A DNA stretch of 60,309 nt from Acidobacteriota bacterium. GTDB lineage: Bacteria; Acidobacteriota; Terriglobia; Versatilivoradales; Versatilivoraceae. The notes under the pieces are model-generated. The model had not been told where the DNA came from and did not search any database. It saw only the letters and a list, made by a program, of their open reading frames with translations. The position numbers and the translations under genes are program-made. This document shows, piece by piece, positions 3,413 through 28,880 of this stretch. How positions within the stretch are numbered: the first letter of the stretch is position 1; every line of letters starts with the position of its first letter. The stretch covers positions 1 to 60,309 of the forward strand of contig JAJECY010000307.1 of assembly GCA_022821775.1 (NCBI GenBank). Direction: 5' to 3'.

Positions 3413-3684
3413 CCCATGTCCGGGCTGAACGAGCCCGGGCGCTCCACTGGCCGGCTTGTTGACCTTGTTTCATGGGCCGGATTTCTCAATTTGTGGCTTA
3501 ATCCGATCTGTCCAGTTCCCCCATCGGGTCTATTCACGTCGTTGCGCGACCGTGGAAAATTCTTCGAAATTCCCACTTCCCCACGGCCTCGACGACGCCG
3601 ATTGTTTTCCGGCAGCAGACCACGACTCCGGCGTCCCTCAGGCTCTGGCCGGGTTCGATCGCCAGTCACTCCCTGATGAAGAGG

Positions 3685-3756
3685 TCCACCACGGGGAATG
3701 GCCCACTTCATCACCCTGCCGAGCCGTTGCCGCACTCGCCGGGCCGTCGCCGAGTC
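3685..3756 (-). pseudogene. Short relic of a P4-like tyrosine integrase central domain
   Basis: Minus-strand peptide ATARRVRQRLGRVMKWAI resembles the ETARRVRQRIGAVMKWA-type motif of phage integrases; no other integrase sequence nearby. Confidence 0.5.
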
Positions 3757-3829
3757 GCCGCTCAGGGGGCTTGGCTGCCTTGCCCGGAGATTTTTTCGTG
3801 TGCTAGCATCTTTTGTTCCGGAGTTGACC

Positions 3830-4693
3830 TTGACTGGCAAATTCACAGTAGCTTTGGCCCAGGTGTCACCCAAGTTGGGGCTGTTAAGCGAGAACCTGCA
3901 ACTTCATCTGGACACTATCCGCCGGGCACAATCGGAAGGGGCGGATCTGGTTGTTTTTCCGGAACTTTCCCTGACCGGGTATATTCTGCAGGACCTGGTG
4001 CCGGACGTCGCCATCGACCCGCTGAACGCTCCAAGTCTCCAGCCGCTGCTGCAGGGCTGCAAGGATATCGCCTGTGTTTTCGGCTTCGTGGAAGTCTCGG
4101 ATCGCTACAACTACTACAACGCCGCTGCATACGTATCCGAGGGCAGGATTCGACATGTGCACCGGAAGCTGTATCTGCCCACTTACGGCATGTTCGACGA
4201 GATGCGCTTTTTCGCCATGGGCGAGAGTTTGCGGACGGTGCCGACTCCCTTCGGGCCGTTGGGCTTGCTGATCTGTGAAGACCTCTGGCATCCCTCCACT
4301 CTTTACCTGCATGTCCAGGATGGAGCCCGGGTGGTGGTGACGCTCTCCTCCAGTCCCGGAAGGGGCGTGAGGACCAACGAAGGGTTCCAGACGTCTCAGG
4401 GATGGGAAACTCTGTTGAAGGCCTTGTCGCAGTTTTACACCGTTTACAACCTTTACGCCAATCGGGCCGGGATCGAGGATGGGGCCTACTTTCCAGGAGG
4501 ATCGATGGTTGTCAGTCCTGTTGGAGAGGTGGTAGCCCGGAGCCAAACCTCCGGAGAGGACCTGGTGCTGGCCGAACTGGACCTGGACGAGATCCGGCGG
4601 GCACGGCTATTCACCCCGGTCTTGAGGGATGAGCGCCTGGATCTGACCCTGAGGGAACTGACTCGAATTGTCCATCAGCGCTCCCAATCCTAG
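3830..4693 (+). CDS. Nitrilase-superfamily carbon-nitrogen hydrolase, likely glutaminase subunit of a two-subunit NAD synthetase
   Basis: E-K-C triad in FPELSLTGY, HRKLYLP and LICEDLW; directly upstream of nadE; GGAG precedes a TTG start at 3830. Confidence 0.85.
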   Translation: MTGKFTVALAQVSPKLGLLSENLQLHLDTIRRAQSEGADLVVFPELSLTGYILQDLVPDVAIDPLNAPSLQPLLQGCKDIACVFGFVEVSDRYNYYNAAAYVSEGRIRHVHRKLYLPTYGMFDEMRFFAMGESLRTVPTPFGPLGLLICEDLWHPSTLYLHVQDGARVVVTLSSSPGRGVRTNEGFQTSQGWETLLKALSQFYTVYNLYANRAGIEDGAYFPGGSMVVSPVGEVVARSQTSGEDLVLAELDLDEIRRARLFTPVLRDERLDLTLRELTRIVHQRSQS

Positions 4694-4724
4694 TCACGCG
4701 ATCACCGGATAGATCACGAAGGGA

Positions 4725-4853
4725 ATAGTGGCCAGTGGTTAGTTATTTTACCGACACGTTATGCAACTGAAACAAGCCTGTTTCACTCTCGTATGATCCG
4801 CCCGCCAGGGCGGGGGCACGGCTATCCACCAGCCACTATCCACTGACCACTGA
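4725..4853. repeat. Intergenic palindromic element with heptamer-repeat arms and internal hairpins
   Basis: Left arm atagtggccagtggttagt and right arm ccaccagccactatccactgaccactga are loosely inverted heptamer arrays; the interior has the hairpin tgaaaca-agcc-tgtttca and a 26-nt motif also found at 11795. Confidence 0.6.
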
Positions 4854-4863
4854 ATAAACGTCC

Positions 4864-5676
4864 ATGCAATTGAACTGCCCGCTGGTAAACCAGGTCCTGA
4901 AGGGCTTTATTCGAGACGAGCTGAGCAAGGCGGGATTTCACCGAGTGGTGGTCGGTCTGTCAGGCGGCATCGACTCGGCGGTCTCCTGCTTTCTGGCGGC
5001 CCGCGCCCTGGGTCCTGAAAATGTTCTGGCCGTCATGATGCCCTACAGGACCAGCAGTCCGGAGAGCCTCTCCGACGCTAGGGCGGTGGTCGAGGCGCTT
5101 GGAGTCAAGAGCGAGATCGTCGAGATCACGTCCATCGTGGACGGCTACTTCGAGGCGCAATCGCGGGCCAACTCCCTGCGCCGCGGCAATGCCATGGCCC
5201 GTGCCCGCATGATCGTCCTCTTCGACAAATCGATGGAGTTCAACGCCCTGGTGCTCGGCACCTCCAACAAGACGGAGCTGCTGCTCGGATACGGTACGCT
5301 TTTCGGAGACATGGCCTCCTCGATCAATCCGATCGGTGACCTTTACAAGGCCGATATCTTCAAGTTGGCCCGTTACCTGCAAGTCCCGCAGTCCATTCTC
5401 GACAAGAAGCCCACGGCCGATCTCTGGGCGGGACAGTCGGACGAAGATGAGCTGGGTTTCACCTATGCCGAAGTGGATGAACTCCTGCACGAGCTCATCG
5501 ACCGCCGCGTCTCCCGGCGAGAGTTGTTGGAAAAGGGCTTCAAAAGGGACTTTGTCCAACTGGTCGTCAACAAGATCCGAGGCTCCCAGTTCAAGCGGCG
5601 CGGGCCAGTGGTATGCAAGCTGTCACCCCGATCCGTCAGTCACGACTTTCACTATCTCCGAGACTGGGGGATGTAA
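4864..5676 (+). CDS. nadE: NAD+ synthetase (synthetase domain only)
   Basis: GLSGGIDSAV ATP-binding loop, NAMARARM, GTSNKTE, GYGTLFGD, PIGDLYK, PTADLW. Confidence 0.95.
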   Translation: MQLNCPLVNQVLKGFIRDELSKAGFHRVVVGLSGGIDSAVSCFLAARALGPENVLAVMMPYRTSSPESLSDARAVVEALGVKSEIVEITSIVDGYFEAQSRANSLRRGNAMARARMIVLFDKSMEFNALVLGTSNKTELLLGYGTLFGDMASSINPIGDLYKADIFKLARYLQVPQSILDKKPTADLWAGQSDEDELGFTYAEVDELLHELIDRRVSRRELLEKGFKRDFVQLVVNKIRGSQFKRRGPVVCKLSPRSVSHDFHYLRDWGM

Positions 5677-5690
5677 CCTCCCGGCGACTT

Positions 5691-6545
5691 ATGGCAGGAA
5701 CACTCTTCGTGGTAGCCACACCGATCGGGAACCTGGAAGATATTACCTTGCGCGCACTGCGCATCCTTCGTGAAGCTGACCTCATCGCCTGCGAGGACAC
5801 CCGCCACACCAGAAAACTGCTGGCCCACTACCAGATCACGACTCCGACCTCCAGCTACCACGAACACAATGAGCAACAGCGAACCGGTTGGTTGCTGGAA
5901 CGGCTGGAATCGGGAACGGACATCGCCCTGGTCAGCGACGCGGGAACGCCATCCATCTCCGATCCGGGATATCGCCTGGTTCGGGCCGCCCTGGAGCACG
6001 GCGTCCGCGTTTCTCCAATCCCCGGAGCCTGCGCGATCATTTCCGCCCTGAGCATCTCGGGGAGACCCACCGATTCCTTTGCGTTTCTGGGATTTCTTCC
6101 CGGCAGGAAAGTGGCGCGGCGCAATCGGCTGCGAGCCTTGCGGTCGGAATCCCGGACGCTGCTCTTCTTCGAATCTCCACTGAGGCTGGCATCCACCCTG
6201 AGCGACATCGACGAGATTCTGGATTCACGTGAGGTAACCGTCGCCCGGGAGATGACCAAGGTTCACGAGCAACTGGTCACGGGAACGGCGGCCGAGCTGG
6301 CCTCCCTCTTCCGAAGCCGACGCCCAAAGGGAGAGGCGGTGGTGGTCGTGGAAAAGGCATCGCCAGAGGCAGCCGCCGAGGCGGTCAGCGACCGGGAACT
6401 GGATCTTCGTTTCGAGGGACTGGTGGACCGGGGTCTTTCCAGGAAGGATGCCATCAAGCAGTTGGCCAAGGAGTTGGCTTCTCCGAAGCGGGAGCTCTAC
6501 CTTCGCCTGCTCCGGGAGAAAGAGCCTGTGGATGGGAAACGGTAA
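5691..6545 (+). CDS. rsmI: 16S rRNA (cytidine1402-2'-O)-methyltransferase
   Basis: LFVVATPIGNLEDITLRA, ACEDTR, LVSDAGTPSISDPG, FFESP, AREMTKVHE. Confidence 0.95.
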   Translation: MAGTLFVVATPIGNLEDITLRALRILREADLIACEDTRHTRKLLAHYQITTPTSSYHEHNEQQRTGWLLERLESGTDIALVSDAGTPSISDPGYRLVRAALEHGVRVSPIPGACAIISALSISGRPTDSFAFLGFLPGRKVARRNRLRALRSESRTLLFFESPLRLASTLSDIDEILDSREVTVAREMTKVHEQLVTGTAAELASLFRSRRPKGEAVVVVEKASPEAAAEAVSDRELDLRFEGLVDRGLSRKDAIKQLAKELASPKRELYLRLLREKEPVDGKR

Positions 6546-6583
6546 CAACCACACAGTTGGACGAAGGAAGAAAGGAAAGAGAG

Positions 6584-7753
6584 ATGATGGAAAAACTGGC
6601 TAGCCGCATGGGGAGGCTGGGAACGGAAACGGCTTTCGACGTCCTGGTAAAGGCCAAGGCGCTGGAAGCGAAGGGACGCAGCGTGGTTCACCTGGAACTG
6701 GGTGAACCGGACTTCGATACCCCCTCGAACGTGATCCGGGCCGCCAGTACCGCCATGGAGGAAGGATACACCCATTACTGCGCTTCGGCGGGCCTGGTGG
6801 AACTGCGGGAAGCCATTGCCGACCACGTGGGGCAAACTCGCTCGGTAAGCATCGATCCGGACTGGGTCGTCGTCACGCCGGGAGCCAAGCCCATCATGTT
6901 CTTTCTGATCCTGGCCCTGGTGGAGGAAGGCGACGAAGTCATCTACCCGAACCCGGGCTTTCCCATCTACGAGTCCATGATCCGCTTTTGCGGGGGAACC
7001 CCGGTCCCCTTGCCCTTGCTGGAGGAGTTCGAGTTCCGTTTCGACCCCGAGCAACTCGAGTCCAAAGTCTCGTCCAGAACCAAGTTGATCATTATCAACT
7101 CCCCGCAAAACCCGACCGGAGGACTGCTGACGGAGAACGACCTGGCAACCGTCGCGGATCTGGCCACCCGGCATGACATCACCGTTCTATCGGATGAAAT
7201 CTACTCCTGCATCATCTACGAAGGAGAGCATCACAGTATCACCTCGATTCCGGGGATGATGGACCGCACCGTCATCCTGGACGGGTTCTCCAAGACCTTC
7301 GCCATGACCGGGTGGCGGCTCGGATACGGCATCATGAGGCCGGAACTGCAGACCCATATCTCAAAGCTGGCGACCAACAGCGTTTCCTGCACGGCGCCTT
7401 TTGCCCAGCGGGCGGGGCTGGAAGCATTGGCCAACGCCGAGGGCGCCACGGCTTCGATGGTGGCGGAATTTCGCAAGCGCAGGGACTTTCTGGTCGAGGC
7501 GCTGAATCGAATACCGGGAATGAGCTGCCTGAACCCTCCTGGAGCCTTCTACGTATTCCCCAACGTTCGCTCCTTCGGCAAAAGCAGCGACGAAATTGCC
7601 GACTATCTGTTGCAGGAAGCCGGTGTGGCCCTGCTCTCGGGAACAGCCTTCGGAGCCTTTGGAGAAGGCTACCTCAGACTCTCCTACGCAACATCCATGG
7701 AAAACCTTGCCGAGGGTAGCCAACGGATAGCAGAGGGTCTGGCGGGATTCTGA
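6584..7753 (+). CDS. PLP-dependent aminotransferase class I/II (aspartate aminotransferase-like)
   Basis: GEPDFDTP, NSPQNPTG, SDEIY, and PLP-lysine motif GFSKTFAMTGWRLG. Confidence 0.92.
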   Translation: MMEKLASRMGRLGTETAFDVLVKAKALEAKGRSVVHLELGEPDFDTPSNVIRAASTAMEEGYTHYCASAGLVELREAIADHVGQTRSVSIDPDWVVVTPGAKPIMFFLILALVEEGDEVIYPNPGFPIYESMIRFCGGTPVPLPLLEEFEFRFDPEQLESKVSSRTKLIIINSPQNPTGGLLTENDLATVADLATRHDITVLSDEIYSCIIYEGEHHSITSIPGMMDRTVILDGFSKTFAMTGWRLGYGIMRPELQTHISKLATNSVSCTAPFAQRAGLEALANAEGATASMVAEFRKRRDFLVEALNRIPGMSCLNPPGAFYVFPNVRSFGKSSDEIADYLLQEAGVALLSGTAFGAFGEGYLRLSYATSMENLAEGSQRIAEGLAGF

Positions 7754-10700
7754 TCAGGGAACGCCGTAAATGAAGAACGCGTCCCCGGAGGACTGACTGT
7801 CCTGGAATCCGTCGGAAACGACGGCAAAGGTCACGAACGGGTTGGACCCGGAAATTCGGGAGACGCGAACATAGCCCTGGCTGGTTTCCGGAGCATTCTG
7901 CTCGAGAATCGACGCCAACCGGATCGACTTCCGGGCCTCGAGTTCCACTTCCTCGATCGTATGGGCCAGCATCCCGGTTTCTCCGTCGTAGATCTTGACG
8001 CTGAAGAGGCTGGTCTCGTCGCTCAACTCTCCCGTATTGACGATTCCCAGATCGGTTTGGTTCTCCTGGTCCCGGCGCAACCCGTACACCCAGGCCGAGG
8101 TATGGTGGGAGTCTCCATAAGGTACGGCCGCGTGGACAAATCCGTTGCGGCGGCCGCCCATGAGAGTTGAATTCCTCGCACCCACGTAATAACCGCTATC
8201 CTCGCCGGCTCCATCAACGGTGACAAAGATGGAACCGGAGAAATCCTCACCGGCAGCACCCAACCCCGGGAAGAATGACCCCGGCAGGCTCCCCTGTTGC
8301 CGCAGCCAGCTTACGAATCCCGGCATGATGATCTGCTCGCCAGGTCTCACGGAGACGAATCGAGCACCCTGCGGATTCTGAATGCCGTCAGACAGAACCG
8401 AAAAGCCCACCACCTTCCAGGACTTCGACCAGTTTGTCACCACCAGCTCGCTGTTGAACCGGGCGGTTTTCTCCACGGCGAGCAGTGTCTGTCCCTTTCT
8501 GCCGACGGTCGCTCTTTCCGAAACAGGCGCAATAAAGGAACCATCGGAACCGCCCTTGCCAGAGAGGAGGGCATAGGCATAGAAGGGCGCTTGCCCTTCA
8601 ATCTTCTCGACGCGCACATAGCCATTTTCCAGCGAAAGACCGCTGGACCGGAGAACATCTTCGATCTCACTGAATGAACCCGGCTCCAACGTCTGATCTT
8701 CCAGAACCAGAAAATCCGGCTCCAGCGTCTGATCCTCAAGAACCAGGGAATCCGGCTGTCGAGGATCGCCGGAGACGATGGTCAGCCTCAAGGTGATTTC
8801 GCCGCTCTCCTGTGCCCCCAGGTTGTGAATCACAAGGCTGCTGCGATCCGCGTCGTTGTGGCGGAGTCCGCAGAGATACACCGGCTGGTGAAATCCGGTT
8901 GAAACGCCCGGATGGGCCCAACCGCTTCGGCCGCCATCGACCGTCCTGATGGTTCGCACGGCCACCGCCCCTTCCAATTCGGAGTTCAGTCCGGAAAAAC
9001 GAACCGACAGACTGCCTTCCCGGTCTCCCGAATCCGGAATGGGAACCCCCAATTCTCTCAGGTATTCAATAGCATCGGGCACGATGCGCTGCCGGCCCGC
9101 CGGCAGGTTGTCCGTGGCGGCGCCGCTTCCCCCGCCAATGGCCGCCGTGTAGGTGAATTCCAGCGTGGCCGGCCGAGTGCCCCGATTGCTGAGGGTCAGC
9201 TCCGAATTGACCGTAGCGCCATCGGACTCGGTGGTTGCGAGCACAATGGGCACAAAGACTTCAGCATCGCCAATGAGCCTCGCCACAAAGGCTCCATTTC
9301 CTTCCGAAGCCTGATAGGCCCCGGTGGTCAAGGTAACGTCGGAGCCCGCCTGCCCCGTGATGGTGGCGCTTCCCCGAGGGCTGACCCAAAGACCACTGCC
9401 TCCCTCGACGCTCTCGCCGCTTCCCGCCCTGACCGAGTAGACAATCTCCTCTCCCTCCGGGTCCAGTTTGCTTACAAAAATCTGTCCATCGGAAGACCCC
9501 GGGCCTTGTACCTCCGGGAAGTCGGAGGAAAGCGTCACACCCGTGACATAGGCGTTTCCTTGCAGATCCACACCCACGCCATTGGCGTAGTCGATGGAGC
9601 TGCCTCCCAGGTAAGTGGAGTAGACCAGCTCCGTCCCCTCCCGGTTCAGCTTGGAGACGAAGGCATCCAGGCACAGGGAGCTTCCGCAGATTCCGGCTCC
9701 GGGAGCCGTTTCGGAAAAAGCGCCGGCAGTCGTGGGAAAGTCCTGATAGGCCGTGTAACCGGTCACGTAGGCGTAGCCCTGGGCGTCGACAGCGATTCCC
9801 GTGATCGCCTCCAGTTCCTGGGGGGACGCATCGAAGGGGACGGAGGTCCCTCCCAGGCGGAAGCTGTAAAGGATCTCGGCCCCCTCGGAATCCAGCTTGG
9901 TCACGTAGGACTCGTTCCCGTTCCTGCCGGAGAGATAGGCATTGTTATGGGAATCCAGGGACACACCGGTGCCCCCCACGCCCTGGACCGAATAGATCAG
10001 CGATGTCCCCTCCGAGTGGAGCTTGGCCACAAACCCGCCGTCGGCGCCGTCCCCCGTGACGTAGGCGGATCCGTGGGCGTCGACGGCAACTCCGTTTCCG
10101 CCCAGTCCGCCTTCGTTGCCACCGAGATAAGTCGAGTAGAGCAGAGCCGTCCCGGTGGCATTGACCTTGGTGACAAAGGCACTGGTGCAGAACTGGCCCG
10201 CAAGGTCGGCAGGGCACTGCTCGCTTGACAGGGCCGACTGCCAGGCATCGGATGACACGGGGAAGTCGGAAGAGTTGGTGGTGCCGGTGAGAAAGGCATT
10301 GCCCTGAAAATCCACGGCAACTCCATACCCGTAATCGAATCCCGAACCGCCCAAGAAGGTGGAATAGATCAATTCCGTTCCCTCGGGGTTCAGTTTGGCC
10401 AAGAGAACGTCGGGACAGCGAACCAGGTTCGGCCCGTCATAACACTCCCCTTCGCTATGAAGACCTTGAAGGGCTCCGGCGGAGGTGAGAAAGGCGGGGT
10501 TGGCAATCCCCGTCACGTAGGCGCTCCCCTCCCGATCGACAGCGACGGCAAGCCCCCCGATCCCGCCGGCAGAATAGGTCAGCACGGGATCGATCACCAG
10601 AGGCCTGGCCGGATCATGGGCGCCCAATCGGAATCCTACCTCGCCGTTGCCACCGAGCTCGTACTGCACGCGGACCTCCTGGCGAACGCCACCCTCTTCC

Positions 10701-11461
10701 TGAAACGCCAGGGGACGCATCAGCCGGAGACCACCCGGGAGAATGAGGTTCCCCTGTTCATCCAGCGACACCCCGAGATGGGCCGGAATGCCCCTCATCC
10801 CCTCAAAGCGGAGGCGGATCGCGCCGGGATCGACACCCGAATCGAGCCGGAAATCGAACTCCAAACGCCGGCCGTTGCCGTAAAAGATCAAGTCGATCCC
10901 CGGATAGACCTGCTGGTAGCGGACCTTGGAAAAGGTCGGAACGTCCAATCGCCACTGCCCTGGGTCCGTGCCGCGCAAGTAGTGACTCTTGCTTCGGAGC
11001 CGGTTTTCGCCACGGATCCCGGGCCGAGGCTTGCCGTTGACGAGCCGCATCCGCAACGCCGATATCCCCCCAGCCGCCCCCTGCAGCCTGGACCCTCCCG
11101 GGGACCCGCCGGACTGAAATTGAAAGACCAGCTCGCGGTCGAGCAGCAGGTAGCTGTAGCCGGGTCCCCGGGAAAGGAAACGAACCTGCTTCCCTGCCTG
11201 GCCCCGATTCGGTTCGAAGCCAAGTGGCAATTCGGCATAGGTCTGCCGCACCTCGGCCTTGCGGAAAGTTTGCAGCCCATCCGGAAGAATCTCGGGTGCA
11301 GCAATGGCCGGCCGGCCTTGGGTTCGGGCCAAAGGCCGCGGACCCGCACCCCCCGGCGCAAGCTCTCCGGCCGCAAGCGGAGACATGCCACCGCCGGCTC
11401 CAATAAGTGCAGCCAAACCGAGAACAGCTTTCGGAACTAATACCCGGCAACACAATGACAT
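7754..11461 (-). CDS. Secreted SBBP beta-propeller-repeat protein with the shared C-terminal module
   Basis: N-terminal LPLGFEPNRGQ...LVIDPVL domain; repeated LxYSTYLGG...GVAVDxxGNAYVTG...SDFP (SBBP-like) units; C-terminal ~500 aa homologous to that of the LRR protein. Start set at MSLCC because the upstream ORF extension runs through a repeat element. Confidence 0.82.
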   Translation of the reverse strand: MSLCCRVLVPKAVLGLAALIGAGGGMSPLAAGELAPGGAGPRPLARTQGRPAIAAPEILPDGLQTFRKAEVRQTYAELPLGFEPNRGQAGKQVRFLSRGPGYSYLLLDRELVFQFQSGGSPGGSRLQGAAGGISALRMRLVNGKPRPGIRGENRLRSKSHYLRGTDPGQWRLDVPTFSKVRYQQVYPGIDLIFYGNGRRLEFDFRLDSGVDPGAIRLRFEGMRGIPAHLGVSLDEQGNLILPGGLRLMRPLAFQEEGGVRQEVRVQYELGGNGEVGFRLGAHDPARPLVIDPVLTYSAGGIGGLAVAVDREGSAYVTGIANPAFLTSAGALQGLHSEGECYDGPNLVRCPDVLLAKLNPEGTELIYSTFLGGSGFDYGYGVAVDFQGNAFLTGTTNSSDFPVSSDAWQSALSSEQCPADLAGQFCTSAFVTKVNATGTALLYSTYLGGNEGGLGGNGVAVDAHGSAYVTGDGADGGFVAKLHSEGTSLIYSVQGVGGTGVSLDSHNNAYLSGRNGNESYVTKLDSEGAEILYSFRLGGTSVPFDASPQELEAITGIAVDAQGYAYVTGYTAYQDFPTTAGAFSETAPGAGICGSSLCLDAFVSKLNREGTELVYSTYLGGSSIDYANGVGVDLQGNAYVTGVTLSSDFPEVQGPGSSDGQIFVSKLDPEGEEIVYSVRAGSGESVEGGSGLWVSPRGSATITGQAGSDVTLTTGAYQASEGNGAFVARLIGDAEVFVPIVLATTESDGATVNSELTLSNRGTRPATLEFTYTAAIGGGSGAATDNLPAGRQRIVPDAIEYLRELGVPIPDSGDREGSLSVRFSGLNSELEGAVAVRTIRTVDGGRSGWAHPGVSTGFHQPVYLCGLRHNDADRSSLVIHNLGAQESGEITLRLTIVSGDPRQPDSLVLEDQTLEPDFLVLEDQTLEPGSFSEIEDVLRSSGLSLENGYVRVEKIEGQAPFYAYALLSGKGGSDGSFIAPVSERATVGRKGQTLLAVEKTARFNSELVVTNWSKSWKVVGFSVLSDGIQNPQGARFVSVRPGEQIIMPGFVSWLRQQGSLPGSFFPGLGAAGEDFSGSIFVTVDGAGEDSGYYVGARNSTLMGGRRNGFVHAAVPYGDSHHTSAWVYGLRRDQENQTDLGIVNTGELSDETSLFSVKIYDGETGMLAHTIEEVELEARKSIRLASILEQNAPETSQGYVRVSRISGSNPFVTFAVVSDGFQDSQSSGDAFFIYGVP
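8680..8757. repeat. In-frame 36-bp tandem duplication
   Basis: ccggctccaacgtctgatcttccagaaccagaaaat / ccggctccagcgtctgatcctcaagaaccagggaat; encodes LVLEDQTLEP twice. Confidence 0.85.
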
Positions 11462-11470
11462 CAGGCTGGT

Positions 11471-11840
11471 CTGAAACAACAGAAAAAAAGAGTTATCCAC
11501 GAAGACACACGAAGGACGACGAAGGGCCACTAAGAAAGACCATGTTCTTGACCCACTCAAAGGGAACGCCCCTTGGGTTCGCGTGAGGGGAAACGCAGCC
11601 AATCGGCTTCCCCTGCGACAGCCTCTCGTCCTGTTAATCCTGTGCATCCTGTGCATCGATGTTCAATAGGTAGATAACCGGATCAACGGGACAGGGTCCT
11701 TGTTGCCGATAGGCCACGAAGAAAAACCGAAAGAGATCCATTCGTATTCGTGTCAATTCGTGTTCATTCGTGGTTCGTCTTTATTAACGCCCCTCTGTTT
11801 CAATCTCGAATGATCCGCCCATCGTGGGAGGCGGGGGCGA
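11471..11840. repeat. Composite intergenic repeat element (CACGAA/TTCGTG arrays, ATCCTGT repeats, shared 26-nt motif)
   Basis: gagttatccacgaagacacacgaaggacgacgaagggccac is nearly identical to 52378-52418; atcctgtgcatcgatgttcaat is shared with 52589; array attcgtgtcaattcgtgttcattcgtgg; bounded by tgaaaca...tgtttca. Confidence 0.75.
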
Positions 11841-12043
11841 AACTTGTCTCAATCATTCCCGTTTGACCCTGTATCAACCACCCAGCCGTCTGTGACGCCG
11901 GCGCGGCCAGGTGAAAAGCGGATAGTCATTCGATCGACAGGTTGAGCATCTTGCCGGTCTCGGTGTAACCGTTCAAGCGCATCCACGTCACAGGGCGCTT
12001 GCCTGTTCCGAAAACCCCCGGCTGACCCCTCCCCACTCTCCAC

Positions 12044-12086
12044 CCTTCACACTTCAAACTTCAAACTTCCCACTTCAAACTTCAAA
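12044..12086. repeat. Heptamer tandem repeat (ACTTCAA-type) at the TonB receptor stop
   Basis: cttcacacttcaaacttcaaacttcccacttcaaacttcaaa. Confidence 0.75.
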
Positions 12087-15000
12087 AGATCAATTTAACG
12101 GCCAGGACGATCTGGCGGGCTTCCTGGGGAAAACCCGCGGGCGTCCCGAAGGAGGCCACCACTCCCGGCACTCGAGACCCCAGGTCCGTGTTGAAGGACG
12201 AGGCCGCCACGTTGGTCGTCGCCGGCTTCACATACAGGTTGGAGTGGTTGAAGAGATTGTAGAACTCCGCCCGGAGTTGAAGCTGCGATCCTTCCACCCC
12301 GCCCATCTCGGGTAGATCGATATTTTTCGCCAGCGCAACGTTCTGGAAGTGGGTACCCGGGCGCCGGAAGGTGTTGCGACCCAGAGACCCGTCAAACGGC
12401 CCATTGACGGAGAGTTGACAGCCAAAGGGCTCGGCATCGGCAATACAGCTCCCATTGGAGTTGCGGACCCGGTTGACGGGCAGGACCAGAAAGGCGTTCG
12501 GCGTCCGGACATCGACCTGACGTTCCCCGGCACCCAGCATTTCCGGCGCCTGTCCCATGAGTCGCGGCCGGGTGTTGTCGGACAACTCTCGATCGAAGAC
12601 CCGGCCATCCCGAAGACTGAAAGGCTGGCCGCTCTGAAAGGAAACGATCCCGCTGAACTGCCAGCCTGCCAACAAAAGGCGCGTCAATCCCCGGGTTCGA
12701 GCCGCACCCGGAATCTGCCAGACGAAGTGGCCGACCATGCGGTGGCGAACGTCGTGATCGGAGGGGCCCTTGTCCAGATCGGGATCAAAGGCATCCAGCG
12801 GCAACCCGGCGCCGCCGCTCACGCTGTCGTCACCCACCAGCGAGCTCACGTTGTCCAGGGAGTGGCTCCAGGTGTAATTCAGGCCGTACTGCAACCCGAA
12901 CCTGCGCAGGCGCAGGCTGTCAATTCTGAGCTGCATCCCGTGGTAGGAAGACCGGGCCTGATTCCCTACCGTTATCAACGCGGCGACGTGGCTGACCAGC
13001 CTTTCCTCCGGGCGCCCCAGAAACCGGCCGCTGCCCACGCGATTGGCGTTGATGGGCCGGTAGAGATCCTGGCCCCTGGAGCCCACGTAGGAGGCGGCCA
13101 GCAACAGCTTGCTGTCCCAGTCCTGTTGCAGGGTGGCGTTCCAGGCCCAGCTCGAGGCGGTTGCCAGATCCTGGTCCAGGTGGCTGACGGCACTGGGGGG
13201 CATCGACAAGGGACGGGAGGACAACAGGGAGTAGGGATCTTCAAACAGGGCCGGCGCCAACGGGATTCCGGAAATACGGACAACGCTGAAGGCCGGAGGA
13301 TTCAGGTTTTCGTAGACAAAGCCGGGCAATCGCTCGTAGAAGCGTCCAATCCCGGCCCGAAAGACCAGCCGGCCTCTTCCGGTCAAATCATAGGCAAGAC
13401 CCATTCTGGGGGAGATGTTGGTCTTGCCGGGCGGAAAGAAGTGGTTGCGATACCGGCCGGGTGCGTCGACGGTGCGGAGCAATCGTCCGTTGGCCACCTG
13501 CTCCAGGGGAGTGGTCCCGTCCCCTCGATAGAAGCTGGCTTCCAGCAGTTTTTCCTGGCCGATGCGGTGGCCGGAACCAAAATATTCATACCGCACACCC
13601 GGCGACAGGGTCAGCCGGGGCGTTACCTTCCAGGAGTCCTGCATAAAACCGGCCAGGTCGTTAAAGCGATAGTGGCGCCGTGGATTGAAGGGCCCGAAGG
13701 GAGGAGCCAACAGCTCCCCGGGAACCTTGCCTCTCGGATCGAGGTGAATTTGAAAGGAGGATGCCCGGCCGTTCACGAATCGCTGCAGGTCCTTGAACTC
13801 CAGGTGATTGTGACGAGTCAGGACGGACTCGGCAGGGGTCTGGTTGTCCCGGAGATGGACCAGGCTGGCGCCGAACTTGAGGTTGTGCCGACCTCTCACC
13901 CAGTTCGCCATCTGTTGAAACTGGTATTCGTTCTGGGCGCCGCCGTCCCCGTTTCGTCCGGAGGGCAATGCCAGAGATCCCACGGCGCCGCTGATTTCAT
14001 CGCCGGTTATGACGAAAGAGGGGAAGCCTCCAGCAAGCTGGATCGCCCTCCGCCGAAAGAGACGGTTGAAGACCAGGCGGGATTCCGTCAGGAAATTGCC
14101 CGACCAGAACCGCGTCAGGTTGACCGTCATGGTCTGGTTTCTCAAATGAAAGGACCGGTCCAGCAGGGGGGAATAGGGCTGATCGACGGTTGCCAGCCTC
14201 ACATGGTCCTGATAGGCGTAACGGGTGTTCAGCACCGTGCGGGGACCGATGCTGGTGTCAACCCGCGCCGTCCAGAGGTAGGTGTCCTGGGGCGGACCGG
14301 CGCCGGCATCCACCGGTCCGGTTCGAGAGGTCGAAGCCAATGCCGGCAACGTGACAAAGCCCGCCCCGAACCTGGACCCGCAGGCTCTTCCGAAGGGACA
14401 GACGGTCCGGGTGCTGATGTCTGTGTCGGAGAGGTTGGTGGGCAAGGGAAAGCGCTCGAAGATGGCATTGGTTCCGGGTGAACTGGCCGAGAGCAGTTGC
14501 GGGGTTGGGACATAGTAGCTGAGAGGGGCGGAACTCCGTACCAGGATGGGTTCGAACGCCGCAAAGAAGAAGACCTTGTCCCGGTAGACGGGCCCGCCCA
14601 GCGTGCCCCCGAGCTGCCGCCGGTTGAAAACCGGCCGGGGCAGACCCCTGGAGTTGTTCTCGAACGTATTGGCCGCCAGCCCGGAGTGGCGCAGAAAATA
14701 GTAGGCGTTCCCGTGAAACTCGTTCACGCCGCTCTTGGTGATGGCGTTGGCGATGAAGCCCGCGTTGCGGCCATACTCGGCGGTGAAGTTGTTGGTGAGC
14801 AACCGGTACTCCTGCACGGCATCCAGGGGAACGATCTGGCTCGGACCGGAGTTGTAGGGATCGTTGTTGGCGCTTCCGTCCAGCAGGAAGCCCCCGCTCT
14901 CGGCCCGCTGCCCGTTCAAGGCAAAGCCGATGCCCCGCCTCACGCTGGCCTGAGTGGCCCCGGAGCTGACCCCTACAAAATCGTAGGGATTGCGGGTCAA

Positions 15001-15513
15001 CGAGGGCAGCTCCGTCATGACCTGCGGCTTGATGTTGGTGCCCAATGTGGCGGACTCGGTGCGGATGAGCGGGATCCCCCCCAGTTCGGTGACGCTGGCG
15101 ATGACCGATCCCACCTGCATCGAGAAGTTCAGAACCACGGCATCCTGGACGTGGAGCTCCAGGTCGGGCTTCACGATCGTGCGGTACCCCAGCAGGCGGA
15201 TAATCACCCGGTAGTGTCCCGGCGGCAGGTTCGAGAGCCGATAGAGCCCCAGCCGATTGGTCCTGGCCCGAAACCTCTGGTTGGTTTCGATCTGGGTAGC
15301 GGTCACCTGGACCTCGGACAGAACCTGTCCCTGCCTGTCGGTCACCCGGCCGCTGAGCGTTGCCGTGGGATTTGCCAGCAGCGAGCCGGCCAATGCCACC
15401 CACAAGATTGGGACTGGAATCAGACGCACGGTGCGGATCAACCTCCCGTGTGGAGCAAGGATGCAAGCCGGCTCACACCCGAGTATGCCACCCTCGGTTT
15501 CCAACTGCGTCAC
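12082..15513 (-). CDS. TonB-dependent receptor, Oar-like with N-terminal carboxypeptidase-regulatory-like domain
   Basis: ATLSGRVTD N-domain; plug motif DAVQEYRLLTNNFTAEYGRNAG; TKSGVNEFHGNAY; QDSWKVTPRLTL; LRAEFYNLFNH; C-terminal RQIVLAVKLIF. Confidence 0.93.
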   Translation of the reverse strand: MTQLETEGGILGCEPACILAPHGRLIRTVRLIPVPILWVALAGSLLANPTATLSGRVTDRQGQVLSEVQVTATQIETNQRFRARTNRLGLYRLSNLPPGHYRVIIRLLGYRTIVKPDLELHVQDAVVLNFSMQVGSVIASVTELGGIPLIRTESATLGTNIKPQVMTELPSLTRNPYDFVGVSSGATQASVRRGIGFALNGQRAESGGFLLDGSANNDPYNSGPSQIVPLDAVQEYRLLTNNFTAEYGRNAGFIANAITKSGVNEFHGNAYYFLRHSGLAANTFENNSRGLPRPVFNRRQLGGTLGGPVYRDKVFFFAAFEPILVRSSAPLSYYVPTPQLLSASSPGTNAIFERFPLPTNLSDTDISTRTVCPFGRACGSRFGAGFVTLPALASTSRTGPVDAGAGPPQDTYLWTARVDTSIGPRTVLNTRYAYQDHVRLATVDQPYSPLLDRSFHLRNQTMTVNLTRFWSGNFLTESRLVFNRLFRRRAIQLAGGFPSFVITGDEISGAVGSLALPSGRNGDGGAQNEYQFQQMANWVRGRHNLKFGASLVHLRDNQTPAESVLTRHNHLEFKDLQRFVNGRASSFQIHLDPRGKVPGELLAPPFGPFNPRRHYRFNDLAGFMQDSWKVTPRLTLSPGVRYEYFGSGHRIGQEKLLEASFYRGDGTTPLEQVANGRLLRTVDAPGRYRNHFFPPGKTNISPRMGLAYDLTGRGRLVFRAGIGRFYERLPGFVYENLNPPAFSVVRISGIPLAPALFEDPYSLLSSRPLSMPPSAVSHLDQDLATASSWAWNATLQQDWDSKLLLAASYVGSRGQDLYRPINANRVGSGRFLGRPEERLVSHVAALITVGNQARSSYHGMQLRIDSLRLRRFGLQYGLNYTWSHSLDNVSSLVGDDSVSGGAGLPLDAFDPDLDKGPSDHDVRHRMVGHFVWQIPGAARTRGLTRLLLAGWQFSGIVSFQSGQPFSLRDGRVFDRELSDNTRPRLMGQAPEMLGAGERQVDVRTPNAFLVLPVNRVRNSNGSCIADAEPFGCQLSVNGPFDGSLGRNTFRRPGTHFQNVALAKNIDLPEMGGVEGSQLQLRAEFYNLFNHSNLYVKPATTNVAASSFNTDLGSRVPGVVASFGTPAGFPQEARQIVLAVKLIF

Positions 15514-26039: not shown

Positions 26040-26148
26040 CCACCGGCCGGCGGTCAGCCGCAATCATCCGTCCCATCGCTCTCCTGCATTCAACTGGATT
26101 TCGCCGAAACGAACGTGCTATAAGGTCGGTCCAAAGTCCCACCCCCTC

Positions 26149-26238
<90 letters not shown>

Positions 26239-26265
26239 CGATATTCCACAAGAAATTCAATTCCG

Positions 26266-26643
26266 CTACTTCAATCGGCGGTTGAGACGGACGGCCTTGA
26301 GATGGGGTGAGCGGGCGATGACGGACAACTGGGCGCCGGTGGCTTCGGCGGCAAAGGCTCTTGAAGCTCGCAGCCAGCGCGGGGGCGAATCGAGAACCGT
26401 CTCGAGGAATGCACGGGTCTGGGCGGCCTTCTCTTCGAGATCCGAGAGGTTCCGGGGGGCTTCGGGCATGACCCTGTCGGGCGCGAGACCTCCGGCGCCC
26501 CCCGCGGTCGACTCTCTCAATCCGACTTTTTGGGGAGGAACGTCGAGCTCAATGATGACGCTGGCCTTTTGCTCCAGTCCTTTGCTGGCCATGCGTTGCA
26601 GCTCTTCACCCTGAAGCTTGTCCAGGCGATTGGTCTTGCTCAC
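26266..26643 (-). CDS. Small protein resembling a stand-alone subtilase propeptide (I9-like inhibitor)
   Basis: GAGGA precedes a GTG start; SVIIEL...SRAFAAEATGAQL...SPHLKAVRLNRRLK parallels the upstream protease prodomain SVIVRM...SRCVVLQTTKDDL...EPLIGDIYPNRVLR. Confidence 0.65.
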   Translation of the reverse strand: MSKTNRLDKLQGEELQRMASKGLEQKASVIIELDVPPQKVGLRESTAGGAGGLAPDRVMPEAPRNLSDLEEKAAQTRAFLETVLDSPPRWLRASRAFAAEATGAQLSVIARSPHLKAVRLNRRLK

Positions 26644-26683
26644 CAATGTCCTCGCTGGGCTATTCCCCTCATTATACTGCGCC

Positions 26684-28195
26684 TCAGAACCCCTTTTCCC
26701 TGGCGAAACCGATCGCCTGCAGGATGTCGAGTCGTCCGAACCCGAAGCGGTGATCCTGTCCGGTTTCTCCCAACTCTTCAACCGATCCGGTCAGCAGGTC
26801 CTGAATCAGGAATGCACGGTTGGTGGGCGCCACCCGCTTCTTGATGGAAGTCGCGCTCAGCAGCAGCGCCATGGCGCCGGCCACATGAGGGGTGGCCATG
26901 GAGGTTCCGTTGAATGCGGCCCACTTGCCGCCCGGCACCGACGAGTAGACTGCCACCCCTGGAGCGCAGATTTCCGGCTTGGAATAGACAAGAGGCAGGT
27001 TTTCCCGGGAAACGAAGTTGGACTCCCGGATGATGTGGGTTCGACCTCCGCTGAAAGCGGCCGCGCAGTCCCGGTAGTCGGTCGCCCCCACCGAAAACGA
27101 AAGAAGATCGTTGCCGGGTGACCCGGTGATCTGCTGGCCGTCGTTTCCTATGGCGGTCACCACGGGGATTCCGGCTCTCAGCGATGTCAGAATGGCTTCC
27201 GTATAGGTGCTCGGCACTTCAGGCCCCAGGGTCAGTCCGCCCAATGACATGTTCAACACATCGACCCCGCGGTCAACGGCCCAGTCGATTGCGGCCAGAA
27301 CCTGAGCATCCGCCCCTCCCCTGGCTCCGTCCAAGGCCATGGCGACCGCCAGCTTGGCGTCCGGGGCCATGCCGATCCAGCGGCCGCTGGCCTTCCCGCC
27401 GGCAATGGTGCCGGCGACGTGGGTTCCGTGCTGAGCCGTGTCATGCGGTTGTGAATCGGGGACCTCCTCTCCGTTGGCATCGAATTCCGCCCAGTCCGCC
27501 ACCCTCCCCTGAAGGTCGGGGTGACTTGCTTCCACACCGGTGTCCAGAACCGCCACCTTGACTCCTCTTCCGCTGGCCCCGTAAGCCCCCCGGGCGGCCA
27601 GCCCTCCGACCGCATGAATCCCCCAGGCGCTGGCCTTGTTCTCCCGCACTCTCTCAGGGAGCGCTTTCAATTCCACCATGCGGGGGACACGCAGCACTCG
27701 GTTGGGATAGATATCTCCGATCAGCGGCTCCTCCACCAATCGATTCAACCGTGCCAGGTCATCCTTGGTCGTTTGCAGCACCACACATCTCGAAGTCCAG
27801 AATGACCGGACGCCGCGAGCTTTCTGCCCCAGCCCGGGCAAGCTCGAGACCAGGGGATTCACTGACCTCAGGCCCCTGGTCCGAAGAACCCTCTTGCTCA
27901 CCGGCCGGATGGCGGTGGCGGCCACTTGAGCCGCCAGACCGCCTTCGTCCCTGAGCGCTTCCCTGGCTCGATCGGAAGGGGTCTCTCGATCGGGTGGAGC
28001 CAACCGGCCCAAGTCGGCCGGCAAGACGTCCCTGGCCGTCAGCAGCAGCGCACGCCGCTGAATGGCGTTGGCAACCACCCCCAGGAGCGTCTCCTCGTCT
28101 CTGTCAGCGAGCTTCATTCGCACAATGACGCTACGGTGATTGCCGGATCCCTCGTCCAGAATCCTTTCCACCTGCCTGGCCAGTCGCTTGGGCAT
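26684..28195 (-). CDS. S8 subtilisin-like serine protease without signal peptide
   Basis: Catalytic triad VAVLDTG, HGTHVAGTIAG, NGTSMATPHVAG; oxyanion AIGND; charged N-terminus. Confidence 0.93.
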   Translation of the reverse strand: MPKRLARQVERILDEGSGNHRSVIVRMKLADRDEETLLGVVANAIQRRALLLTARDVLPADLGRLAPPDRETPSDRAREALRDEGGLAAQVAATAIRPVSKRVLRTRGLRSVNPLVSSLPGLGQKARGVRSFWTSRCVVLQTTKDDLARLNRLVEEPLIGDIYPNRVLRVPRMVELKALPERVRENKASAWGIHAVGGLAARGAYGASGRGVKVAVLDTGVEASHPDLQGRVADWAEFDANGEEVPDSQPHDTAQHGTHVAGTIAGGKASGRWIGMAPDAKLAVAMALDGARGGADAQVLAAIDWAVDRGVDVLNMSLGGLTLGPEVPSTYTEAILTSLRAGIPVVTAIGNDGQQITGSPGNDLLSFSVGATDYRDCAAAFSGGRTHIIRESNFVSRENLPLVYSKPEICAPGVAVYSSVPGGKWAAFNGTSMATPHVAGAMALLLSATSIKKRVAPTNRAFLIQDLLTGSVEELGETGQDHRFGFGRLDILQAIGFAREKGF

Positions 28196-28366
28196 TTCCC
28201 GATTCCCCCGATAGTTCTACCACGATTGCACGGACCTCACCGCACCCCTGATCCGCAATCAAATCCCGTTCGCCTGCAACTCGGCCAGCATTTTCTTTGC
28301 TCAGAGCGACGCGGCAGTCATATGGGATTGGTCTGCAAAACGGCTCGGCCTCCCTCTGCCTGCATC

Positions 28367-28880
28367 TTATCCGAGAGTCGTGCGTCCTCGGCGGCGGGCC
28401 AGCAACCGCGACAACTCCGCCATGGCCGGATGCCTGGTCGATGCGGCAGGAGGCATATTCTCAATCCGTTCCAACAATTCCGACTCCGAAAATTGCTGCG
28501 GCCAGTCCAGGTTGACCGAAATGCGTCGATCATCCATCGCGATGGCTCGAAGCGCATACAGGGCACCCACGGCAGGTGGTGTTAGCGGACCGCAACTGCC
28601 TCTGGGAACGGGTGAAATCGGAACGCGCTGAAGCACCGGAGGCCAGAGCTTCTTCCTGTTCGCGTTGGGTGAACTCGGCCCCTTCGATACGGGAAGTGCC
28701 GGCTGCTTCCAACCGCAACTGTTCCTCGTGGACCTGCTCGATCCATTGAGGCAGGTATGGCATCCGATTCAGAACGCCGGCGGCGGTTTTGGCCTGGACC
28801 AGCAGGTCCAGAAGCGTCACGGCATCGTAACGAATCCACTGTTGCGGGAGGACATAGCGGCTGACACTATCTGGGGTCAT
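28367..28880 (-). pseudogene. Broken Fic-family gene (N-terminus plus a possible out-of-frame C-terminal piece)
   Basis: LEAAGTSRIEGAEFT matches the Fic N-terminal E-A-x-x-(S/T)-S-x-I-E-G motif; no HPFxDGNGR core; the ORF ends after 116 aa and a second frame continues to 28367. Confidence 0.6.

Follow-up and report, generated by a model that had tools for sequence, protein, structure and literature searches.

What is the role of a small gene that directly follows a subtilase gene and appears to encode a second, free-standing copy of the protease's own prodomain? The question is raised by positions 26266 to 28195 of a 60,309-nucleotide stretch of DNA from an Acidobacteriota bacterium (contig JAJECY010000307.1 of assembly GCA_022821775.1), which at its full length we call the window. 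The initial annotation of this locus proposed that a cytoplasmic S8 protease and a copy of its propeptide form a new toxin-antitoxin or defence module. We confirm the observation behind that proposal, and we find the interpretation partly supported. The small protein is well supported as a prodomain-like partner of the protease, and it is probably a trans-acting, prodomain-like inhibitor of a leaderless protease that is itself probably exported, by analogy with PopC, PopD and Oar of Myxococcus. Binding, inhibition and localisation of the pair we infer. The two genes and their parts are as follows (aa, amino acids), with the coordinates and the 40-bp distance between the genes just as they were first described.

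26266..26643, minus strand: small gene, 125 aa, GTG start; the proposed trans-acting inhibitor, prodomain-like (I9-like); its product is P0001
26644..26683, minus strand: spacer of 40 bp from the protease stop to the small-gene start, with a GAGGA ribosome-binding motif
26684..28195, minus strand: S8 subtilase gene, 503 aa (these coordinates take in the stop codon); its product is P0002
26687..27646, minus strand: S8 catalytic part of the protease (aa 184-503), with D218, H259, N351 and S432, placed by Pfam and by invariant alignment columns
27647..28195, minus strand: first ~183 aa of the protease, a prodomain that is divergent and expanded, contains an insert of ~60 aa modelled at low confidence, and does not begin like a signal peptide

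The pairing, first noticed at this one locus, is strictly conserved. Of the 13 other genomes searched from the same genus, 10 have a full-length orthologue of the protease (84-88% identity), an eleventh (G005) has a truncated one and two have none; the small gene follows the protease in 12/12 loci of the genus. Outside the genus, the best protease match in the 41 genomes searched has 37% identity and covers only the catalytic part, and 400 further genomes of the window's phylum contribute three weak matches each for the prodomain and the small family, nothing more. Metagenomes contain distant relatives of the protease, which share 31-47% identity with it in the first 205 aa. When one of these was used to seed a metagenome scan, 22 loci were obtained, including one generic S8 gene (L129) and three loci without room downstream; a small-family gene lies directly downstream on the same strand in all 18 loci that have at least 500 bp there (amongst the metagenome loci, L111 is identical to part of L112, and the match in L122 is partial). 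In another phylum, that of an Oceanospirillales record, the small-family gene is present in 5 of the 401 genomes sampled, and each of the five has a protease of the same family (44-51% identity, aa 3-503) directly upstream. As negative controls we used loci around other S8 genes, taken from scans with the protease alignment A5 and consisting of generic S8 genes only, none of them covering the N-terminal domain. The small-family gene is found at 0/80 of these loci in genomes and 0/80 in viral contigs. The pairwise identities of proteases and small proteins co-vary, with a Spearman coefficient of 0.86 over 14 loci and 0.81 without the within-genus pairs; related loci do not count as independent here.

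Purifying selection acts on both genes. The median ratio of non-synonymous to synonymous substitution rates (dN/dS; 11 sequences, 55 pairs, dS ~0.44) is 0.07 for the catalytic domain, 0.31 for the protease prodomain and 0.26 for the small gene, whose product is 73-98% identical across the orthologues of the genus. The GTG start of the small gene is kept in 11/11 same-genus orthologues, and in the window the GAGGA motif lies 6 nt upstream of it. A scan for promoters and terminators found nothing near the pair, and no terminator-like site in the 40-bp spacer. One locus of the genus, L019 of relative G005 (6170-11069), holds two copies of the small gene, one beside a truncated protease (aa 158-503) and the other beside a 42-aa protease fragment; this locus is duplicated and decaying.

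The small proteins are a family of their own. An exhaustive phmmer search with the small protein of the window finds 175 cluster representatives at E <= 1e-3 and 46 at E <= 1e-10. Amongst the 150 representatives listed, 145 are shorter than 175 aa and align over almost their full length, so that, judged by these matches, the small proteins are a sizeable family of stand-alone proteins. From them we built alignment A3, with 96 small proteins. To P0001 and three orthologues from its genus it adds 92 of the 150 representatives listed, chosen for stand-alone size. A search for homologous proteins with A3 returned almost nothing past the genus and no Pfam labels, and in the scans run none of the small-family clusters lies above a curated Pfam model's own threshold. 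No signal-peptide-like or membrane-spanning stretch is found in the small protein by a hydropathy heuristic. An unusual match of the family is P0085, a protein of 2465 aa without any Pfam family in which 24 separate stretches match the small protein at residues 42-110. Either the domain is arrayed in tandem there, or repeats or low complexity have produced an artefact.

The protease alignment, A2, includes 24 proteins: P0002 and 23 of 25 search matches, with two fragments omitted. The comparison of the small protein with the protease by BLASTP is not significant, and its best alignment (E 0.71) falls on segments other than the motifs that the initial annotation had lined up. The comparison of profiles recovers that very alignment: with hhalign, A3 against A2 aligns residues 87-125 of the small protein with residues 128-173 of the protease (probability 88%, E 3e-6). 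At a looser setting the match extends over residues 7-125 and 1-169 (88.5%, E 2.7e-6), and the N-terminal pieces alone also match, residues 8-44 with 2-38 (87%, E 4.1e-6). The A3 model further matches the L127 protease's own prodomain at E 3.4e-5. The aligned segments share an N-R motif, placed ahead of the end of the last strand. In the proteases N165 and R166 are invariant in 24/24, and in the small proteins the N is present in 87/96 and the R in 83/96. In 43 of the 96 small proteins the C-terminus lies at most one residue past the L-column that follows this motif, and in 58 at most three residues past it; small proteins that end at the motif resemble a cleaved propeptide.

The predicted structure agrees with the profiles. 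The AlphaFold2 (AF2) model of the small protein has a mean predicted local distance difference test score (pLDDT) of 81.1 and a predicted template-modelling score of 0.72, with a poorly conserved loop at aa 41-57 of pLDDT below 50. Its elements follow the order helix-strand-loop-helix-strand-strand-helix-strand (strand 27-33, helix 63-83, strands 89-91 and 96-101, helix 103-110, strand 115-120), which includes the predicted beta-alpha-beta-beta-alpha-beta fold of subtilase propeptides. In a structural search with VIA-align, subtilase propeptides fill the top 14 rows, with Z from 8.6 to 6.5, and generic ferredoxin-like folds come after them. The top row is 3afg_A (Z 8.6, 84 residues, 2.2 A), and the prodomains of subtilisin E, BPN', PCSK9 and the Aspergillus alkaline protease are found at Z 6.5-7.4, the first three of these at Z 7.2-7.4. 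Foldseek puts ProN-Tk-SP first, with probability 0.97. The nearest named neighbours of the small protein in the ESM Atlas include Inhibitor_I9 (0.94), "PopD" PF27478 (0.93) and CspB_prodomain (0.90). The Pfam model Inhibitor_I9 (PF05922) is matched by 26 of the 96 relatives at E <= 1, the best at 7.5e-5; P0108, the only one for which a score was seen, has 19.8 bits and is below the cut-off of 21.2. Together, the profile, fold and motif results show, at the level of profiles and predicted folds, that the product of the small gene is a free-standing paralogue of the unusually long I9-type prodomain that the protease itself carries.

Two other proteins touch on the relationship between the two genes. 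P0036, a metagenome protein of 207 aa, has part of the protease prodomain joined, after ...YPNRMLHVPR, to the C-terminal half of the small protein; it looks like a deletion between the paralogous segments in which the catalytic domain was lost. P0146 (508 aa, S8 and small domain) we considered as a possible fusion of protease and small protein and rejected. Its identity with the protease stops 23 residues before the protease end and ~40 unrelated residues follow the protease part, so that a frameshifted read-through is more likely, and we do not use it as evidence.

The protease belongs to the S8 family. Peptidase_S8 (PF00082) matches aa 209-487 with E 7.6e-51 and 173.6 bits against a cut-off of 21.8. 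As first described, the catalytic triad is intact: D218, H259 and S432, together with N351, are invariant in the 24/24 family members, and we take them to be the triad and the oxyanion residue by their DTG, HGTH and GTSMATP motifs. Residues 1-208 match no model in Pfam, NCBIfam or PADLOC, and Inhibitor_I9 matches 0/24 members of the family. The N-terminal elements in the AF2 model of the protease have the same order as those of the small protein, and the best Foldseek matches of this model are unprocessed pro-subtilisins, with longer alignments than those to mature subtilisins; the complex of POIA1 with subtilisin BPN' (1v5i) is amongst its matches. As a lead, the ESM Atlas neighbours of the protease N-terminus are CspB_prodomain (0.91) and I9 (0.89).

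No signal peptide or membrane-spanning stretch is found in the protease by a Kyte-Doolittle hydropathy heuristic, in agreement with the initial annotation, and by the same heuristic the homologues also lack signal-peptide-like N-termini. P0002 has no 19-aa window above 1.3, and across the family the highest-scoring 12-aa window of residues 1-70 reaches 1.2 in the median and 2.0 at most. In all relatives the conserved block ...QVERILDEG.G..RSVIVRM starts at most ~25 residues from the N-terminus, which leaves no room for a leader. The initial annotation called the protease cytoplasmic. That does not follow from a missing signal peptide, since PopC, which amongst leaderless subtilases followed by a small inhibitor gene has been studied most, is exported via Oar (excerpt of PMC6434023) and an Oar-type gene lies directly upstream of the protease in five of the seven complete loci of the genus. 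There the gene is ~140 bp upstream on the same strand, and its product has 965-988 aa with CarboxypepD_reg, OMP_b-brl_4 and TonB-dependent barrel domains. In L015 the Oar-type gene is at 11205-14171, and a sixth locus, L013, keeps a 43-aa remnant of it. G001 has neither the pair nor the outer-membrane gene at the site.

The surroundings of the pair in the window include three more features.

26149..26238, plus strand: tRNA-Ser (GCT), found by ARAGORN, convergent with the small gene; an integration site in relatives
28231..28388: junction where relatives have a ~3-kb Oar-type TonB-dependent outer-membrane gene that is absent in the window, placed by blastn of the window against L015, L018 and L013
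28367..28880, minus strand: remnant of a SoFic-like Fic gene, a neighbour outside the module

In the genus, the gene order is glmS, a MoxR-type ATPase, a VWA protein, tRNA-Ser, variable DNA, the small gene, the protease, variable DNA, Fic, a class IV aminotransferase and DUF1501. The Fic gene of the window is broken, as had been proposed: a 723-bp internal deletion removes the Fic domain, with a 10-bp overlap of the flanks, while the gene of the relatives is intact (409 aa, SoFic-like with E 2.7e-40). The stop of the small gene is 27 bp from the 3' end of tRNA-Ser, the distance first reported, and the initial annotation placed the pair at a tRNA hotspot. The hotspot is real, while the pair belongs to its conserved flank. 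In L015, the locus of relative G013, an insert of 4.66 kb (4436-9091) separates tRNA-Ser from the pair, and 12 bp of the tRNA 3' end are repeated at its bounds; relatives thus use tRNA-Ser as an insertion hotspot, beside which the pair stays in place as flank and not as cargo. Two proteins are encoded in the insert, a Ppl-like SMC/AAA ATPase of 919 aa (PADLOC E 9.7e-36) and a Schlafen AlbA_2 / HATPase_c_4 protein of 407 aa, and it is probably a defence island. In L014 of relative G008, the variable DNA around the pair (13850-15448 and 3665-8202) encodes an ankyrin-repeat protein of 532 aa and, in addition, two DDE transposases.

Outside the genus the neighbours vary by locus, without a constant third gene. 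They include a second S8 gene, multihaem cytochromes, pyrimidine-synthesis genes, glutamate dehydrogenase and aconitase, and at one locus a MacB-type permease, with an Oar-type barrel at a distance of 2.7 kb. L112 (8795 bp) is plasmid-like: besides the pair it carries ParA, a relaxase of the MobA/MobL type and a gene resembling dCTP deaminase. Its two ends show no overlap that would mark it as circular. DNA near-identical to window positions 26100-28400 is present in sponge, coral and marine metagenome contigs from nine studies, with no RNA run amongst the runs listed. Elsewhere in the window, 12 kb from the pair, there is another Oar-type barrel gene at 12193-14742 (PF25183, E 2.3e-136). G000 has no orthologue of the Oar-type gene at E <= 1e-20, and it holds 23 matches to PF25183, the same barrel family, elsewhere.

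The explanation we favour, and hold to be probable, is that of a prodomain-like inhibitor acting in trans on a leaderless, probably exported protease. The two genes form a self-contained module that is inherited both vertically and horizontally. The protease is made without a signal peptide and probably has its own divergent, expanded I9-type prodomain. The small protein most likely docks on the catalytic domain at the site of a cleaved propeptide, with its conserved ...PNRxL(K/R) C-terminus pointing to the active site, and from there it would block the protease within the cell and might also keep it from being exported. By analogy with PopC and PopD, the protease may be released by degradation of the small protein or by separation from it on export; in Myxococcus, the FtsH-dependent loss of PopD frees PopC. 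Passage through the outer membrane may use the Oar-type TonB-dependent transporter, as the gene order in the genus suggests, the gene being deleted in the window. If this explanation is correct, leaderless subtilases of the PopC type would be silenced by a simple structural logic, a separate copy of their own prodomain, and the small proteins would be an uncharacterised bacterial family of stand-alone propeptide-like proteins with at least 175 sequence clusters. The Oar-type gene upstream of the pair would make a genus outside Myxococcota a candidate case for how widespread TonB-dependent protein secretion is, a question that the excerpts of PMC6434023 raise.

Several results weigh against this explanation. 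P0001 itself has no match in Pfam, NCBIfam or PADLOC and no PF05922 match at E <= 1 (PF05922 has no match in the whole of G000 either), and the A3 profile finds 0 matches amongst PDB sequences at E <= 10. For the model of the small protein, every Foldseek E-value is above 1e-3. VIA-align Z values of 7-8 may reflect a common alpha/beta sandwich and are no proof alone, and the AF2 model of the protease is poor (pLDDT 58.8). The Oar-type gene is not beside the pair in the window; it is beside the pair only in this genus, with one more nearby in L128, and is not adjacent at any of the 5 loci of the other phylum. The likeness to PopC/PopD is one of architecture; for a relation in sequence the only lead is the Atlas score of 0.93 to PopD clusters (152/256 features). 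The A3 model has 0 matches in 401 genomes of the phylum where the Atlas PopD clusters are commonest, so the small family is probably not PF27478 itself, and is a sister rather than a member of it. Finally, some loci have a defence-like context. In L223 (4927-8310) a 1128-aa NACHT protein is encoded ahead of the protease, with the same orientation and 44 bp between the two, in L122 (1441-3888) a NACHT-like 816-aa open reading frame adjoins the pair, and in the genus SoFic-like and Ppl-like genes are near it.

These contexts speak for a toxin-antitoxin or abortive-infection module, in which a cytoplasmic protease would carry out lethal proteolysis once its labile prodomain mimic is lost. Such a module would fit a two-gene unit without a constant third gene and its patchy distribution (this genus only in its own phylum, with weak matches in 400 other genomes, and 5/401 in the other phylum), the plasmid-like contig L112 with its ParA, MobA/MobL and dCTP-deaminase-like genes, the Schlafen-type gene that accompanies the Ppl-like one in L015, and a match of the protease to the PADLOC candidate "subtilase" model at E 5.8e-27. 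That match, however, spans the generic catalytic domain only, and we find neither a toxin-antitoxin nor a known defence signature: the IetS/IteS models match the generic catalytic core weakly (PADLOC E 1.3e-8) and fall far under threshold, with 18.3 bits for NCBIfam NF042956 against a cut-off of 900. In 11 of the 13 other genomes of the genus the pair is at one chromosomal site, with dS ~0.44, which looks like vertical inheritance and not like the turnover of defence genes, and at the tRNA it is flank and not cargo. Its neighbours in the other phylum are mostly housekeeping genes, a tblastn search of 72,556 plasmids with the small protein gives no match, no family member is found at the 80 viral S8 loci, and the known leaderless analogue, PopC, is exported. 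We regard this module as unlikely. A bolder form of it, slightly less likely still, is an autonomous intracellular addiction or immune effector whose labile antitoxin copies the toxin's prodomain. Certain lineages would put it to use in abortive infection or plasmid maintenance, by way of a NACHT sensor whose gene lies directly upstream (L223) or of a mobilisable plasmid backbone (L112); it would be a toxin-antitoxin principle not described before.

The two remaining alternatives change the role of the small protein. I9 propeptides act as foldases as well as inhibitors, and the small protein shares its predicted fold and docking motif with the prodomain in cis. It might then be a chaperone that acts in trans and is required for folding or refolding of the catalytic domain, for instance after this has passed a transporter unfolded, and no standing inhibitor; in the view of PMC6434023 (excerpt), PopC passes Oar "most likely unfolded". 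Against this, the small protein also lacks a signal-peptide-like start and so would be absent from the site of refolding, and the protease already has a full prodomain in cis, which leaves the chaperone improbable, marginally more so than the addiction or immune effector. Least probable is a small protein that serves as a dedicated substrate or precursor and is cleaved by the protease, for example to free a signal or a peptide. The position of its gene downstream of the protease and the poorly conserved, low-confidence central loop at aa 41-57 would suit a substrate, but conservation falls on its folded I9-like core and its C-terminus rather than on a releasable peptide, and it has homology to a prodomain and no leader/core organisation.

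How does an inhibitor acting in trans on a leaderless, probably exported protease, the reading we favour, compare with known systems? IetAS, a defence system against phages and plasmids, combines the S8 protease IetS with the AAA ATPase IetA; what it has in common with this pair is an S8 protease for which an effector role inside the cell has been proposed. In the pair studied here a prodomain copy takes the place of the ATPase, and no ATPase gene adjoins the pair in the window; we considered the MoxR and VWA genes as an IetA-like partner and rejected them, as they lie beyond the tRNA in conserved synteny with glmS. Free-standing I9 propeptide-like inhibitors are found in eukaryotes, as yeast PBI2, Pleurotus POIA1 and Arabidopsis SPI-1. 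These are also small stand-alone proteins with the propeptide fold, and they inhibit a subtilase in trans via their C-terminus. They are not encoded beside their target, whereas the candidate here is bacterial, operon-linked and a paralogue of its target's own unusual prodomain, a paralogy that includes the helix before strand 1 and a loop of 21-37 residues. The intracellular subtilisin ISP1 of Bacillus and its inhibitor IPI are, like this pair, a bacterial subtilase without a signal peptide and a dedicated protein inhibitor (excerpts of PMC3901451 and PMC6220982). They differ in that IPI is immunoglobulin-like and all-beta (excerpt of PMC3901451), while the small protein here is predicted to be alpha/beta and I9-like, and in that the Bacillus ISPs have a short N-terminal propeptide, compared with a prodomain of ~180 aa here.

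The closest analogue is PopC/PopD of Myxococcus. In the excerpts of PMC6434023 and PMC4320627, PopC is a leaderless protease that is released from the cell at its full length and needs the TonB-dependent transporter Oar to get through the outer membrane. Oar is built of an N-terminal extension, a plug and a barrel. PopD is encoded just downstream of PopC, forms a complex with it and blocks it (excerpts of PMC6434023 and PMC4320627), the two genes forming the popCD operon (excerpt of PMC4320627). Both systems have a subtilisin-like protease of ~50 kDa without a signal peptide, with an N-terminal ~200 aa that has no recognised domain (for PopC, excerpt of PMC6434023), and a small partner gene directly downstream, which is co-inherited here and which in the case of PopD is known to restrain the protease (excerpt of PMC4320627). 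To an Oar-type transporter with a carboxypeptidase-regulatory-like extension and a barrel, the protease is linked by function in Myxococcus and here by gene order, in 5/7 loci. The differences are that in Myxococcus oar is not beside popCD (MXAN_1450 against MXAN_0206/0207), that the organism of the window is in another phylum and its window has no adjacent transporter gene, and that a p25/CsgA-type substrate belongs to Myxococcus, with none known here. The 12-member cluster that holds P0044, a same-genus protease orthologue, has one member named Acidobacteriota by its source. A full-text search found no paper combining PopD, subtilisin and prodomain. Given the likeness to PopC/PopD and the missing toxin-antitoxin or defence signature, calling the system new was too strong; what holds of that claim is that this family has not been characterised before. 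The module amounts to an as yet uncharacterised variant of a PopC/PopD-like arrangement and not to a fundamentally new kind of system.

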